From: Escherichia coli
Lineage (GTDB): Bacteria > Pseudomonadota > Gammaproteobacteria > Enterobacterales > Enterobacteriaceae
Length of the DNA stretch: 64,000 nt
Strand: one strand, 5' to 3'
Assembly: GCF_041248615.1 (NCBI RefSeq)
Contig: NZ_CP158426.1
Positions 6,130-62,018 of this stretch are shown one piece after another (within the stretch, counting starts at the first letter, position 1; every line of letters starts with the position of its first letter). A program made the translations under genes and the position numbers. The notes below the pieces were generated by a model, which saw only the letters and a program-made list of their open reading frames with translations, did not search any database and had not been told where the DNA came from.

Positions 6130-7612
<1,483 letters not shown>

Positions 7613-25908: not shown

Positions 25909-25947
25909 CAGTGTATTGGTAGCTGTTAAGCCAGGGGCGGTAGCATA
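25909..25947 (+). promoter_or_regulatory. JUMPStart element with ops site (RfaH recruitment) upstream of kpsM
   Basis: The sequence cagtgtattggtagctgttaagccaggggcggtagcata contains GGCGGTAG at 25936-25943, about 30 nt upstream of the kpsM ATG. Confidence 0.85.
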
Positions 25948-51764: not shown

Positions 51765-51981
51765 CAGCTTTTCCTTACAGAGGGTGAATAAAAAAGCCGG
51801 TACCCACAAATGTGGATACCGGCAGGTACAAAACAGCATGGTCAGATAAAGTGTTTTTTCCCGGACATAAATGCTTCCCCTCTCTCATCCGCCAGAGAAG
51901 TATCAGTCCGTTGTGTGCAATTCCGTTCTGCATGATGAAGAGATTCAGCTGCCTTTTCGCAGGCCATTAACCACTATAAAC

Positions 51982-52017
51982 GATCGATTGTGACGATCGA
52001 TACCTGTTTTATCGATC
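51982..52017 (-). promoter_or_regulatory. Three-GATC cluster upstream of flu (Dam/OxyR phase-variation switch)
   Basis: GATC sites lie at 51982, 51995 and 52014 within aacGATCGATtgtgacGATCGATacctgttttatcGATCGtttt, about 220-250 nt upstream of the flu ATG. This matches the known agn43 arrangement. Confidence 0.8.
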
Positions 52018-52136
52018 GTTTTATTCTATTAATAACAAGGCAGCCACGCAAGAGAAACAGGAGGAGTATGAGGGGTTTGTGTCATGTTTTCAGTTGGTTA
52101 ACGCAATGTAATCAGGCATTTCCTCTGGCAGAGTGT

Positions 52137-56800: not shown

Positions 56801-59262
56801 CGCAATCCTTTTATTTCTGGCGTACGCTCTTTAAGGCATCCGGCTGAGAGGCTAATGATCACTCCTCGCTCACAACGGACCTTCAGCTCAGCCGCTCCGG
56901 CCGCTTCATGCCATGAATGTACGCAGCCAGTCAGAATATTAAGGTGCGGATTTCAGTTCACTTGTCAGCCCAGTGATACAGGACAGTAATGACCAACAAT
57001 TTGGTATTGATACAACAAGTTGCGGCCCCGGTTCGTGGGGGAGATGAAACGACGGTAGCTGAAGTTACTGAAATGAAGAATTCAGAGAGACTGAATGATA
57101 TGCCTCACCTTTAGTGAATAGTGTAAAAACGGGAGACTCTCACCCGAGATTATCCACTCATGCTCAATGTATAATTTTCGTGCCCCTCACAGGTAAGAGC
57201 CGGATGCATTCGTTGTGTACGTTGCAGAATTGGTAACCGGGGACCCTGCAGTCTTTAACTCCGAGTCTTGTGCTGCTCATTTGCCACAAAATCCTGGTAC
57301 GCCAGCTCAATCATTTCATTCAACAGTTTTTTTGGGGGGCACCACGACTTCGGGCAATACTTTCAGGCTGTTTGTGGATTTTTCCGGACAGTTTCAGCGG
57401 AACGGAACCATCAGCACGTTCATCACGCCTTTTTTGTTGCTCCCGGGCACTTTTCAGTTCATCCACAATATAGCTGCTCTTCTCGCATTTTTGCCGATTT
57501 TAAAAATGCGAACAAAACATCCGTACATGATGTACAGATTAAACTGCCAGGGACTGGTGTCAGAAAGCCTCCGGTTAGCCTGCTCTTTCCGGAATGTGCC
57601 GGTTATGAAAAACCGGAAATTCAGTCTCTGTTGTAAGATGTACCCTCTGATACTACGTTTTCGTTTTCTCTGTGTATTTAACTCACTGTATTTATTGTCT
57701 TTTTAAGCCTGACTGATATTCTCCGGTCATAGTGTGCCGGATAGACATCCCGTAACCTTCTCATTTTTATATAAAAATACCTGCACTGTCTTCAGCGCAT
57801 CTGTCTCCTTTAAGTAAAAAATGTTTTCACGTATTGCTGTAAATTCATTTTAAATCAGTATGTTATCCTGATATTGCTGTCTCCTGGTTTGATGCGTAAT
57901 CGTTCTGCCTTTCTGGATGATTCTGGTGCTTCCGGGTGCATTCTCCTCTGCACATGCAACAGTTCGTCATCGCCACGTGCCCAAAAAGCATATAAAAACG
58001 AATCGAATCTGATCGTTTTTTCAATCGTTTTTCACAGGAATTTCGTAGGGTGTTCTCCGCTATAGCCTCCATATTTGCTGTCTTTTTCTTCATAAATCGT
58101 ATGCAATATAACCAGTCTGTCAAGACATCTTCCCTGCTGTTGAGGTGACGATCTCATTTCTGGTCTTTTCCGGGAGAGAGACGGTCAGATGAGCGAGCCG
58201 GATTTACTGCCAGAGGTACTCCCCGCGGCAGAAAATAGTGCTCCTGTTTCCGCAATCCGGGATCGGCAACGTCCCATGGTTAATGCCACTTGCAGCGTCA
58301 GGCACTGCAGGTTTACGTCGTGATCTGATTTCTTCTGCACTTATCCCGATCACGGAAGTTCCCCCTGCGCAGACATCGGTTCCTGCCGACATCTCACAAT
58401 ACCGCCAGGCTGTCATGCAGTAACACCCGCAATGCGGTCTGCGGTTTTAAGCGCACTCTCCTGTTTTCAGTGCACCGATAAGCGTTATAGAAAGTCTGGG
58501 GTGAGTTACTGAATGTCTGTTAAGTGGTGCCGTGGGTGGAGACTGCTTACTTTTCCACAGCAACTGCAGTCATTCAGGATGCTCAGGAGAGAATATGTCA
58601 ACGCCACGAGCCGGGCCATTTTCATGCCAGCCAGTATATTTTCTACACTGATGCAGTCTGATTTTCACCATTCCATCCTCACTGATTGTCGTGTTGTTTT
58701 GGGTCATCACCACAGCTTTCCGTTTCTCTTTTAATCGGTAACGCTCTCCTTTGATATTCAGCGTGGTTGAGTGATGCAGCAGTCAATCCAGGAGCGCTGT
58801 TGTCCGGCAACCACCATATCAACTTCTTCCCGGCGTGCCGGCGCTGGTATCCAGGCCGGGTTTCGAAGCGAAGCGTTCCTGACGGACTCATTGACATCCG
58901 GGCCGGATGTAGTCATGCAGCATGGAACGTCCGCCCGTATACACTGACGGCGTCCGGCCGTGTACAGAGATCGGTAAAATTCGTTACTACAACTGTTCCT
59001 GAATATCTGACGAAGAAACATTCAGCAATAACATCCGGCCGTGTACATCTCTTTTGCGGTGCAGGGAGCACTGTCGCCATGTACTTATTGTCACCAGGGT
59101 GAGGCATGTACCGCAGCATGCCAGCTCAGCAATGACAGGATGCCCTTAAGACATCCGTCATGGCTCAGTATGATGACGACGAACACGCTCTGCAGGTGAG
59201 CATGCAGGGCCGGGGGTATCATCATTTCCGTATTTTGCCGCACCTTCCGGAAACAACCGGCA

Positions 59263-59871
59263 TCAGTTACGGTTACCGTCAACCGTTGTGCGGTATGCCA
59301 GGAGCACGTACTGATCCATCAGATCCGTCAGTGCTGCGTTCTGCTTCTGACGGTCGATGATCCATTCCCCCAGCTCTTTTTCTGATTTCCGTTTCAGGTT
59401 CTCCGTCCAGTCGTCAAGGCTGTTTCCGGTCATTAAATCAAGCCAGCAAAGCCAGACCAGTTTGAGGCGCAACTCCGTGCCACCAAACTGACGGAAGAGG
59501 CTGATCAGTTTATTTGCCAGAGAACGCTGCCTCAGACGTTCACATTCAGACAGCAGAATCCCTTCCAGCATCGGATGATGAACCAGCAGATGTTCGCTGG
59601 TGCATAAGTTCACCACCAGATCATCATCCAGGGGCGGCGTGGCCCGTTTGTCAGAGCCATAAATCAGCCGGTGCAGACTCCGGGGTACGATGGCAATCTT
59701 CGGTTTTTCACCATTGAATGACACCCACCCGGGCGTCAGATTATGGAAGTAGTGGATATTCGGATGACACACGCCCCAGGATACGGCGTGCCGGGTGAAG
59801 CCGGTCAGCCATTTCTGGTAGCTTTCGTGGAGCAGCTCGTAACGGGTCTGATACTGTGGTTTCATTTTCAT
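59263..59871 (-). CDS. Hypothetical protein (about 202 aa), downstream of alpA-like gene
   Basis: It has a clean ORF with an AGGA Shine-Dalgarno sequence before the ATG at 59871. I recognise no motif. Confidence 0.55.
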   Translation of the reverse strand: MKMKPQYQTRYELLHESYQKWLTGFTRHAVSWGVCHPNIHYFHNLTPGWVSFNGEKPKIAIVPRSLHRLIYGSDKRATPPLDDDLVVNLCTSEHLLVHHPMLEGILLSECERLRQRSLANKLISLFRQFGGTELRLKLVWLCWLDLMTGNSLDDWTENLKRKSEKELGEWIIDRQKQNAALTDLMDQYVLLAYRTTVDGNRN

Positions 59872-59958
59872 ATTCCTCACGGGGGATAACAGGCAGCAGA
59901 GTGCCGCCGGCAGGCCGGAGATTGCGTCTGCTGTGGGCGAAGGGCCAGTGGTTAAAAA

Positions 59959-60165
59959 TTACGGACGGGACTGTGCAATACGCGCCTGCAGCCAGGCTTC
60001 CACTTCACTTTTCAGCCAGCGGGAGCTGCGGCCGAGTTTGATGGGAGCCGGAAAGGCCCCATCCTTGATGAGCTTGTAAAACCACTTATCGGTCAGGCCG
60101 GTCAGCTGAGTGATAAACGTCATATCGACCATCTGGTCATCCATCAGCGAAACTGGGGTGGTCAT
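59959..60165 (-). CDS. alpA: AlpA-family (prophage CP4-57 regulatory) DNA-binding protein
   Basis: 68 aa; FITQLTGLTDKWFYKLIKDGAFPAPIKLGRSSRWLKSEVEAWL matches the AlpA/MerR-like HTH pattern. Confidence 0.85.
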   Translation of the reverse strand: MTTPVSLMDDQMVDMTFITQLTGLTDKWFYKLIKDGAFPAPIKLGRSSRWLKSEVEAWLQARIAQSRP

Positions 60166-60548
60166 AAAAATCTTCTCCGGATGTTGTTAATCTCAGCCGG
60201 CGTTGATGATGAAAACAACGCACCACCTTCACCGGCATAACAACCGGGGAGAAACGTAAAAAATCAGTAGGGGAATATTCCTGCCAGGAGAGAAACTGTT
60301 GTGTACAGGCAATACAGGTTGTCTGTTTTGTCAGTGAAGCCGGTATAAACGGAAGATGATTTTGTGTTGCCGGAATATGGGATGGCGTTTTGCCGTGACA
60401 GGATCAGTATTTTCAGTGATGATTATTACTGTGCAGGGGAGTACCGGAGATAAACCACGCCCTGTACCTGCCAGAGCGGAGGTTTGTATTGACTGAACGG
60501 AAGATAAAGCGAGGTAAACACTGTTGCGGTGAGCGGAGAAGACTGAGA

Positions 60549-61340
60549 TTATTCTCTGTAATTACAAACAACAGTGATCTGATCCGGTTTTTTTACCGTT
60601 ACGGGTTTCCGGGGATCAATTTTATAGACCGGGGTAATGACCACGCCGGAATTTATGGAGAAAAGCGGGATCCAGCAATAAACGTCCGGATATTTCTGTG
60701 TCTCCGGAATACCTTTTGTGCCAGAGGCCATCAGATCTTTAACGCTCACGAAAAATGACTTCCGCAGATCAAAAAAGTACTCGTTATATATCACATCCTT
60801 TGCCAGCAGGATGACTGCATTACCAACAGCCGATTTTACAGGTGTTTCATCAGGTGGATTATCGTGATTGTATATTGTTCTTTCTATATAAATAAAACAG
60901 GCATATTTCGTCTTCTCCCCGGATAGTTGCATCTGGTATTCGCAAATGTCTTTGATATACCGACTTTCAACCCTTCCAATCATCTTATCCCGGCGATAGT
61001 GTCTTTTATGTTTCAGCGCGTACAGAACACCATTTGAACTGTCAAACTCCAGGACACTTCTGGTGAAAAGTTTGTTTTCCCAGATCTCCAGACAATACTT
61101 CTCTGCACTGACGACATTGCGTTTGTGGGGAAGATTCCGTTGATACACTCCATTTAATAAGCGTGACTGCAGTTCGCCTGCAAGTTGATAGTAACAGTTA
61201 ATGTCATTAAGGACAGGTGCTGTGGCGTTGAGTAATGTGTTGATTACCTTAGAGCGCGAAAGTTTGTGGGTATGACAGTACTCATCCACAATTCGCAGTG
61301 TCTCATCACTGGTCATATTGAAAGTTATACGTGTTGTCAT
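60549..61340 (-). CDS. Hypothetical protein with N-terminal ribbon-helix-helix-like segment fused to an unassigned domain of about 210 aa
   Basis: 263-aa ORF in AT-rich DNA. The N-terminus TTRITFNMTSDETLRIVDEYCHTHKLSRSKVINTLL has the beta-strand, helix, helix pattern of CopG/Arc/MetJ proteins. The rest has no motif I recognise. Confidence 0.55.
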   Translation of the reverse strand: MTTRITFNMTSDETLRIVDEYCHTHKLSRSKVINTLLNATAPVLNDINCYYQLAGELQSRLLNGVYQRNLPHKRNVVSAEKYCLEIWENKLFTRSVLEFDSSNGVLYALKHKRHYRRDKMIGRVESRYIKDICEYQMQLSGEKTKYACFIYIERTIYNHDNPPDETPVKSAVGNAVILLAKDVIYNEYFFDLRKSFFVSVKDLMASGTKGIPETQKYPDVYCWIPLFSINSGVVITPVYKIDPRKPVTVKKPDQITVVCNYRE

Positions 61341-61670
61341 GATGAAGTTTTCTGTTAATCATACTGGTTGATATGCATAACATTTCATAAAAAATACTGT
61401 TAATTCATATAATTGATTTTTTGACTGGTTTTATCCTCGTGTGGTGGAAAGCAGTATTACTGCCACTGTAGTCAGCATAAATCTATCACACAGAACCACC
61501 GAAAATGAAGCATTGCTCAGGGGGAAGCTGCCACTCGTATGAGTTCTCTGAACCATGATAACCAGTATTTTTCGTTTTGGGTGATTTGTTTATCGTTACA
61601 GCTACATACAGTTCATGTACCATTAAAAAATAATAAAGGTTAATTAGTATTATTTATAGAAGTATGTTTA

Positions 61671-61748
61671 TGTAATTCTACCGTGTAAATGAACCCTGTA
61701 ATTCTACCTTGTAAATACACCTTGTAACCAAGTCCTGTAGAAGTCTGT
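61671..61748 (+). repeat. Six phased 13-bp tandem repeats with TGTAA/TGTAG core (two near-identical 26-bp units, then diverging)
   Basis: TGTAA(G) starts at 61671, 61684, 61697, 61710, 61723 and 61736. The units are tgtaattctaccg / tgtaaatgaaccc / tgtaattctacct / tgtaaatacacct / tgtaaccaagtcc / tgtagaagtctgt. Further CTGTA(A/G) copies are scattered to about 61960. Confidence 0.8.
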
Positions 61749-62018
61749 CTCATAGAAGTATCTGTGCAGTGATATTCTCTGTAGTAGTACTTGTAACTCT
61801 GTTCTTAACTCTCTCTTCAGTAATGTAGTCCCGCAACACCTGAATATAAATCTGTAATGTTCACACACTGACTGTAACGTGCTTTGTTAAGTAATGTCTG
61901 CTATTTTTTTTCTGTTATTTTTCCTGTTGTTTTCTGTATTTTGTTGTATGGTGTAATAACTATTCTGAACCCGTCATCACCTTTATAGCTAAGAGTATGA
62001 CTTCGCCAGTGTTGATAC

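Follow-up and report, generated by a model that had tools for sequence, protein, structure and literature searches.

Does a chromosomal stretch that holds no intact gene, but carries three similar 16-mers and a perfect palindrome, harbor a functional site, or does it merely record decay? This question is raised by positions 56850-59262 of a 64-kb piece of the Escherichia coli chromosome (the window, i.e., the whole stretch of DNA that was analysed), located in a CP4-44-like genomic island. The first-pass annotation of the window proposed decayed island genes and, alternatively, a recombination site, a binding site, or a structured RNA. We compared the stretch with its counterparts in the islands of strain A20 (L001), UTI89 (L003), and 2013C-3181 (L013), and in further E. 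coli island loci (L004-L009). The stretch is 100% identical to strain A20, and E. coli Nissle 1917 carries it at 99.6–99.8% identity. It is very probably non-functional wreckage, composed of a gene that lost its body, a spacer without coding function, and a piece of an IS21-family insertion sequence (IS), in which the repeats and the palindrome are lineage-specific and neither a site nor an RNA is to be expected. We describe an ordinary case of decaying island and IS DNA, parts of which PGAP has already annotated.

The stretch indeed contains only short, overlapping open reading frames (ORFs), the longest of 163, 122, and 111 amino acids (aa), all without a credible Pfam match. In a genome with the 100% identical stretch, PGAP reports only two pseudogene fragments and a 66-aa ORF at the right edge. 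The proposal of decayed island genes holds for two of the three protein-like pieces, namely the minus-strand fragment and the right third, and fails for the plus-strand frames starting with MSEPDLL (see below).

A dead IS21-family remnant

The right third of the stretch (58596-58942, minus strand), not recognised in the first-pass annotation, is an IS21-family istA/istB remnant. It retains about 350 bp of approximately 2.1 kb, in the canonical istA-then-istB order on one strand, and directly adjoins the island backbone:

58596..58647, minus strand: right terminal inverted repeat region with R1 ...CGTGGCGTTGACA (terminus at 58596) and R2 CATGAAAATGGC, from alignment to the right ends of IS21 and ISEc62
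58648..58803, minus strand: istB remnant, the last 52 codons of the AAA+ helper ATPase, from tblastn and blastn; PGAP reports an 'AAA family ATPase' pseudogene at 58648-58782
58799..58942, minus strand: istA remnant, approximately codons 85-133, fused directly to istB, from blastn, tblastn, codon reading against IS21, and a multi-homologue alignment
58943..59262, minus strand: island backbone, intergenic DNA 3' of a 200-aa gene (59263-59880, minus strand), from homology to L004, L006, and L005

Positions 58799-58941 match IS21 istA at 82% in blastn (E = 9e-37) and with E = 3e-4 in tblastn, and the nucleotide identity of the istA piece is 82–84% overall. The istB piece corresponds to residues 214-265 of IS21 IstB with 71% amino-acid identity (tblastn, E = 3e-18), and 58615-58802 is 85% identical in nucleotides to the 3' end of IS21 istB by blastn. 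R2 and R1 align with IS21 and ISEc62, with a small deletion between R2 and R1; the left end is deleted. Since a single contiguous high-scoring segment pair runs across the fusion point in UTI89, L004, and 2013C-3181, the istA-istB fusion predates their split. Neither complete istA or istB frames nor the catalytic domain, the Walker motifs, or the left end remain in the remnant, which, as a two-ended element, can therefore neither transpose nor be mobilised. The E. coli genomes and PLSDB plasmids searched yielded no closer intact relative.

In the same island of strain A20, a nearly complete ISEc62 (IS21 family; L001 15735-17701) with an internal stop in istA lies approximately 0.5–2.5 kb past the position of the window's right end. 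It is a possible recombination or conversion partner for the remnant.

A deletion junction within the cluster

The cluster of repeats and palindrome straddles the junction of two unrelated sequence blocks, the istA remnant on the left and the backbone on the right. All matches outside the lineage of the window break at 58941-58943: thousands of records match the left part only, and others match the right part only. The whole cluster is present in 263 of 5,426 genomes. The junction 58943/58942 reads GTATAC/A, where the slash marks the breakpoint, and ATAC is found on both parental sides (istA ...CCCGTATAC-CATTGCC; backbone ...GCCATAC-AGACGG). The deletion took the 5' part of istA, the left IS end, and a 71-aa ORF (WP_001327829.1), amounting to approximately 0.48 kb in the coordinates of 2013C-3181. 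In relatives, the counterpart of the backbone segment 58943-59262 lies upstream of this 71-aa ORF. The segment itself is 92–94% identical to L004 3629-3983 and 83% identical to L006, and is matched by L005 only from 59048 onwards.

The slot is more complete in the islands of 2013C-3181 and UTI89. Read along the minus strand of the window, it contains the 200-aa gene, the 71-aa ORF, an istA pseudogene, an istB pseudogene, an unannotated spacer of ~1.1 kb, and an intact 390-aa gene. An ancestral island carried the 200-aa gene, the 71-aa ORF, the ~1.1-kb spacer, and the 390-aa orphan gene, and an IS21-family element then inserted between the 71-aa ORF and the spacer. The middle of the IS was subsequently lost, joining istA codon ~133 to istB codon ~214, a state common to about 2,000 E. 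coli genomes. In the lineage of the window (about 260 genomes, including Nissle 1917), a second deletion, at the ATAC microhomology, created the 58942/58943 junction. A deletion of 951 bp gutted the 390-aa gene. Our comparisons establish the course from the ancestral slot through both deletions, as well as the istA origin of the palindrome and the first repeat copy.

In UTI89, an IS100 copy (L003 3455-5410) resides in the istA remnant at the point matching window positions 58940-58942. The same few bases have thus been hit twice independently, and this position may be a fragile or preferred spot.

Repeats and palindrome

The three 16-mers previously noticed are located as described, but they are not identical, because the third has A at position 2 and starts with CA instead of CG:

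58928-58943: repeat copy 1, CGTCCGCCCGTATACA, istA codons plus the first backbone base
58951-58966: repeat copy 2, CGTCCGGCCGTGTACA, backbone; repeat-like in this lineage only
59032-59047: repeat copy 3, CATCCGGCCGTGTACA, backbone; predates the junction and drifts among relatives

Their consensus, CRTCCGSCCGTRTACA, is matched at up to two mismatches by three sites in the 64-kb window against 0.21 expected, and none of 100 shuffles reaches three, although this test is partly circular as the pattern was derived from the same copies. The motif occurs nowhere else in the window. Pairs of local 16-mers (within 150 nt) sharing at least 14 of 16 positions number 13 in the window against 1.85 in shuffles, and those sharing at least 15 of 16 number two against 0.05. 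The repeats are therefore non-random but not unique. The perfect 8+1+8 palindrome, ACATCCGGGCCGGATGT, was confirmed at 58894-58910. Perfect 8+8 palindromes with loops of 0–5 nt occur 21 times in the window (6.1 in shuffles), which corresponds to ~0.8 per 2.4 kb, so that one palindrome here is unremarkable.

The only other local pair in the window with at least 15 of 16 matching positions belongs to an array of TGTAA-containing repeats at 61668-61880, upstream of a 263-aa gene. This array comprises two 22-nt copies of TGTAATTCTACC(G/T)TGTAAAT, 26 bp apart, and further CTTGTAAC and CTGTAA motifs, and looks like a candidate set of binding sites.

Whether the repeats are explained as coding sequence depends on the copy. 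The palindrome corresponds to istA codons Y-I-Q-P-(K/G)-R, and to Y-I-Q-P-K-R when read against intact IS21. The minus strand of copy 1 (TATACGGGCGGACG) reads as istA codons Y-T-G-G-R, part of the G-Y-T-G-G-R placed at 58928-58942, and GGAACGTCCGCCCGTATA of copy 1 is identical in IS21 istA. Both features are accordingly part of the transposase remnant, whereas copies 2 and 3 reside in intergenic backbone DNA. We also considered the copy-3 region as a second, older istA fragment, but its similarity to IS21 istA (score 17) is reached by 125 of 500 shuffles. Within the window, the similarity between the copy-3 and copy-1 regions is significant (score 24, 0 of 500 shuffles).

Neither the palindrome nor the repeat family is conserved. 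The position of the palindrome reads ACGTTTGGGCTGGATGT in IS21, ISEc62, and an F-plasmid remnant, and ACGTCCGGGCTGAATGT in UTI89-type remnants. Its arms are complementary at 4–6 of 8 positions in all homologues and perfect in the window lineage only, which differs from the outgroups by two to three substitutions, each raising complementarity. A search of 185,579 species genomes for the exact palindrome extended to 20 nt gave no match, and the 17-nt palindrome gave 76 exact matches, scattered singly across unrelated taxa and by estimate at about the level of chance; no IstA/IstB-like sequence was found at these 76 loci. The counterparts of copy 2 are AGCCCGGTCATGTGCA in L004 and L008, AGCCGGGCCATGTGCA in L006 and L009, and CGCCTGACCATGTGCT in UTI89. 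Those of copy 3 are CATCCAGCCGTGTACA in L004 and L008 and CATCCTGCCGTGTGAG in L006 and L009, and copy 3 is unrecognisable in UTI89 and L005. Copy 2 differs from L004 and L008 at 5 of 16 positions, all changed toward the sequence of copies 1 and 3, and three of the five changes occur in this lineage alone. The first 30 nt right of the junction contain about seven differences, the following 48 nt none; the 48 nt after copy 2 are 100% identical in six loci (the window, L007, L004, L008, L006, and L009), with UTI89 more diverged. Because relatives carry an imperfect palindrome and degenerate copies, both the family of repeats and the perfection of the palindrome are derived and belong to one lineage, and the cluster sits on a junction that exists only in that lineage.

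Judging from the natural alleles compared here, the near-identity of the 16-mers and the perfection of the palindrome appear to have arisen within this lineage in unconstrained DNA. The likely route would be drift helped by short-patch templated mutation, i.e., template switching at the quasipalindrome and between the nearby quasi-repeats that adjoin the deletion junction. E. coli quasipalindromes are known to mutate toward perfect palindromes through template switching (PMC7202029). As the changes in the palindrome affect both arms, more than one event or direction would be needed.

The truncated orphan gene and the spacer

The left part of the stretch contains the remains of the 390-aa gene and its upstream DNA:

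56866..57257, minus strand: non-coding tail 3' of the 390-aa gene, 92% identical in blastn to UTI89 (L003 481-873)
57258..57463, minus strand: 3' remnant with the last ~69 codons of the 390-aa orphan gene, from tblastn; PGAP reports a pseudogene at 57255-57466
57464..57488, minus strand: start codon (57488-57486), first few codons, and junction of the 951-bp deletion, read directly
57489..58595, no strand assigned: ~1.1-kb spacer upstream of the 390-aa gene, from the ORF lists of relatives and the identity profile

The minus-strand peptide ..IVDELKSAREQQKRRDERADGSVPLKLSGKIHKQPESIA.. noticed previously is present, and the fragment (57258-57499) is the C-terminal end of an island protein of 390 aa, whose intact form is found in UTI89 and 2013C-3181. 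A tblastn search with this protein (family WP_000263646.1 / WP_000263652.1) recovered residues 300-363 at 69% and 365-390 at 92% identity in two frames (E = 7e-29), with an extra frameshift in the remnant near 57336. The window aligns with 2013C-3181 in three blocks, 57096-57463 at 94%, 57474-58942 at 86%, and 59279-61500 at 95%. As 57474-58942 corresponds to L013 5865-4434 and 57096-57463 to L013 7185-6817, L013 5866-6816 is missing from the window; these 951 bp are the body of the 390-aa gene. The deletion junction reads TATTGTGG/ATGAACTG, and a stop follows after nine codons. No Pfam, NCBIfam, PHROGs, or PADLOC family was found for the 390-aa protein, and a large protein search returned only E. 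coli 'hypothetical protein' entries. It is an E. coli-restricted orphan without a domain.

The spacer contains no conserved or homology-supported ORF in any relative. The plus-strand MSEPDLL frames are present at 58189-58423, running from 58189-58323 and then 58238-58423, and thus begin one base after the previously reported start of 58188. They are not a decayed known gene, as we found homologues confined to the locus, a broken frame, and poor conservation. The repaired 78-aa peptide has five matches among 5.8 billion proteins, all of them short E. coli ORFs of the same locus, and no match in Pfam, NCBIfam, PHROGs, or PADLOC. In the window, L004, and UTI89, the frame is interrupted. The frames lie in a poorly conserved spacer block (58174-58373), and their region is the least conserved of the stretch, with 48–81% identity and 44 gap columns against the UTI89 class. 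A rare allele, P0001 (ENA, one 3-kb contig), lacks the extra G of the window, so that a 77-aa MSEPDLL...QAVMQ frame reads through; its product has no homologue beyond the locus.

An AT-rich block of the spacer (57574-58173, GC content 0.32–0.49) behaves differently. It is 93–100% identical and gap-free in comparison with the divergent UTI89 and 2013C-3181 islands, as conserved as the flanking genes and more so than the adjacent IS remnant (75–92%). The block is found at 93% identity or more in about 2,090 E. coli genomes, with a gene call in one of 40 sampled records. Its two small ORFs (plus strand, 57874-58065; minus strand, 57863-58123) lack a bias for third positions (6/4/6 and 12/6/5), and in some genomes they are interrupted by frameshifts or stops. 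The block may act as leader or regulatory DNA for the 390-aa gene, or may simply have been shared recently. On its minus strand, a sigma-70-like site lies at 58123->58096, and terminator-like hairpins lie at 57799-57782 and 57539-57519.

Tests of function and alternative explanations

The first-pass suggestions of a recombination site, a binding site, or a structured RNA are not supported by the comparison, since the cluster straddles a deletion junction, its features are not conserved, and it has no Rfam match. An RNA (a small RNA or cis-regulatory element) encoded by 58880-59060 would draw some support from the palindrome, which could form a hairpin, and from the minus-strand fold (z = -1.94), marginally more stable than shuffles. 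However, the plus-strand fold is no better than shuffles (z = -0.49), no Rfam family matches the cluster even at E ≤ 1, and nothing in the stretch reaches a gathering score. The sole Rfam match in the stretch, CRISPR-DR13 at 58639-58668 in the istB end/right-end region, scores 27.9 bits, below the cut-off of 37 bits (E = 0.56). In the predicted minus-strand helix, copy 3 is paired with one half of the palindrome; this became possible only after the deletion joined two blocks adjacent in this lineage alone, and no homologue retains the pairing positions. There is no promoter-like site nearby on the minus strand, and the sole plus-strand site (59146-59174) is downstream and points away; promoter-like and terminator-like counts are at the level of shuffles. 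We regard an RNA as extremely improbable. Slightly less so, but still highly improbable, are operators for a local regulator, either the AlpA-type helix-turn-helix (HTH) protein or the 200-aa protein, retained or newly evolved at the promoter of a former downstream ORF. Direct repeats close to a promoter are a common form of operator, the intergenic DNA that holds copies 2 and 3 directly precedes the start of the 71-aa ORF in relatives, and an HTH regulator is encoded about 1 kb away. Yet this ORF is deleted in the window, islands that keep it do not conserve the repeats, copy 1 is transposase coding sequence brought here only by the deletion, and the remainder of the window lacks the motif.

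The ends of IS21 carry direct repeats ~23 bp apart with a terminal CA (PMC10122671), and the 16-mers, which adjoin the istA/istB remnant, bear a resemblance to them: the spacing of copies 1 and 2 is exactly 23 bp, each copy ends in CA, and L005-type island homology begins at 59048, just past copy 3. They could thus be read as the L1/L2-type multi-repeat end of an IS21-family or other transposon, with TGTACACGGCCGGAYG as the end motif and the TGTACA termini as the element boundary. This is as improbable as the RNA. Copy 1 aligns base for base to istA codons 85-90 in IS21, ISEc62, and three further remnants, all of them lacking a partner repeat; the right end that survives here (CGTGGCGTTGACA / CATGAAAATGGC) is unrelated to the 16-mer; and backbone homology passes through copies 2 and 3 in L004, L006, and UTI89, where the copies degenerate, with no boundary at 58966. 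Nor is there an inverted copy of the 16-mer in the window at up to two mismatches, and the L005 boundary is a mosaic breakpoint, at which GCTGAGTGAG still aligns to the end of copy 3. The variant with the 16-mers as L1, L2, and L3 of an IS21-like left end terminating at 59047 was rejected on account of the istA codon match, the unrelated right end, and the continuous backbone.

The decay product could also be the same without any templated mutation, if the repeats resemble one another and the palindrome is perfect by pure coincidence of neutral drift. We consider this a serious possibility, although somewhat less probable than its opposite. The IS remnant is about 15–20% off all homologues, so that two to three changes per 17 nt are expected; perfect palindromes and local pairs with at least 14 of 16 matches recur in the window (21 and 13, respectively); and the features were chosen by eye after the fact. 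On the other hand, the substitutions are clustered right of the junction, every change in copy 2 and the palindrome raises repeat identity or self-complementarity, and a pair with at least 15 of 16 matches within 150 nt is expected only 0.05 times per window. With lineage-unique copy-2 changes that are transitions only, features picked post hoc, and no intermediates among the sampled alleles, templating and pure drift stand at comparable odds. By our own estimate, the weight of the copy-2 direction is roughly 0.04 to 0.2, depending on the substitution model.

Several observations weigh against the stretch being nothing but wreckage. The three 16-mers are more alike than chance predicts, the mechanism behind their likeness being only inferred, and the minus-strand fold of the cluster is better than that of all but 6 of 200 shuffles. 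The apparent direction of templating is weak evidence because the three lineage-unique changes in copy 2 are all transitions. Moreover, not all 2.4 kb need be functionless, since the AT-rich block is conserved like the neighboring genes. It is conceivable, but on balance unlikely, that the cluster is a natural record of short-patch templated mutagenesis beside a microhomology deletion, with the quasipalindrome perfected and a 16-nt patch converted to resemble a nearby quasi-repeat in neutral DNA, or that the AT-rich block functions for the 390-aa gene, as its leader, a regulatory region, or an RNA still lacking annotation, and has been orphaned by the deletion of this gene.

Island setting

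The host island lies beside the gsp/yghD locus and is devoid of an integrase. Its order is DUF4942, CbtA/CbeA, RadC-like, antirestriction, Ag43, YeeP-like GTPase, LysR/hydrolase/MFS module, and the stretch, followed by the 200-aa gene, an AlpA-type regulator, the 263-aa gene, Hha, and inovirus-Gp2-type genes. The stretch thus occupies a variable slot between the YeeP-like GTPase, with the acquired LysR/hydrolase/MFS module, and the AlpA-type regulator. Homology with islands lacking this module starts at 56862-56866, and many genomes match only from query base 63-67; PGAP places no feature in 56866-57257. The same family searches as for the 390-aa protein (Pfam, NCBIfam, PHROGs, PADLOC) gave nothing for the 200-, 263-, and 71-aa neighbors, and identified the 68-aa regulator as AlpA/HTH_17.

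In the GTPase-AlpA slot of different islands, we observed unrelated orphan genes of 390 aa (L003 874-2046), 305 aa (L005 2201-3118), and 290 aa (L006 992-1864). The C-termini of their products look ribbon-helix-helix-like by eye, with one faint RHH_7 match (E = 0.075). The slot with its alternative orphan genes may be a swappable module. At the right edge of the stretch, the 66-aa ORF called by PGAP (WP_096980503.1; 59160-59360, plus strand) is antisense to the 3' end of the 200-aa gene; its product is 91% identical to that of the equivalent ORF in the island variant L005 and is without a family match. Elsewhere in the window, Rfam matches at gathering score are the isrC small RNA (150 bits), a JUMPstart element, and an 'IS102 RNA' just upstream of the Ag43 gene (6423-6545, 25909-25947, and 51783-52019).

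Implications and comparison with known systems

Beyond annotation hygiene, namely labeling the stretch as an IS21-family remnant, a truncated orphan gene, and island spacer, its importance is slight. It illustrates that clusters of repeats and a palindrome noticed post hoc can originate where deletions join pieces of decaying mobile DNA, and such clusters should not be taken as sites or RNAs unless they are conserved. As the stretch is also found in the probiotic strain Nissle 1917, that strain would allow a cheap check of any functional claim. Should templated mutation be the right reading, the cluster would offer a neat case from nature of a mechanism known mainly from reporter studies.

In comparison with the IS21-family elements IS21, ISEc62, and IS100, the remnant keeps a piece of istA, a piece of istB, and an IS21-type right end, but unlike an intact element it is a dead fragment. 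The orthologous or paralogous remnants in UTI89, 2013C-3181, and strain 720632, which PGAP lists as 'IS21 family transposase' and 'AAA family ATPase' pseudogenes, share with it the insertion site, the fusion, the spacer, and the 390-aa neighbor. In contrast to the window, a longer part of istA survives in these islands, together with the left IS end, the 71-aa ORF, and the complete 390-aa gene. Their palindrome contains mismatches, nothing resembling the repeat stands at the place of copy 2, and in UTI89 an IS100 occupies the point of the window's deletion junction.

In gene content and gene order, the surroundings of the stretch match the cryptic-prophage-like islands of the CP4-44 / CP4-57 type (AlpA, YeeP/YfjP GTPase, Ag43, CbtA/CbeA), which the isrC and IS102 RNA matches also fit. 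The island differs from these in that the examined region of this copy has no integrase, a scan of the window revealed no tRNA, and the extra LysR/hydrolase/MFS module adjoins the stretch. As in template-switch mutation at quasipalindromes (the Ripley model and the thyA hotspot; PMC7202029), an imperfect ancestral repeat became perfect through changes that all raise complementarity. Unlike in those cases, the mechanism here is deduced from comparing natural alleles, and chance drift of a pseudogene could have produced the same outcome.

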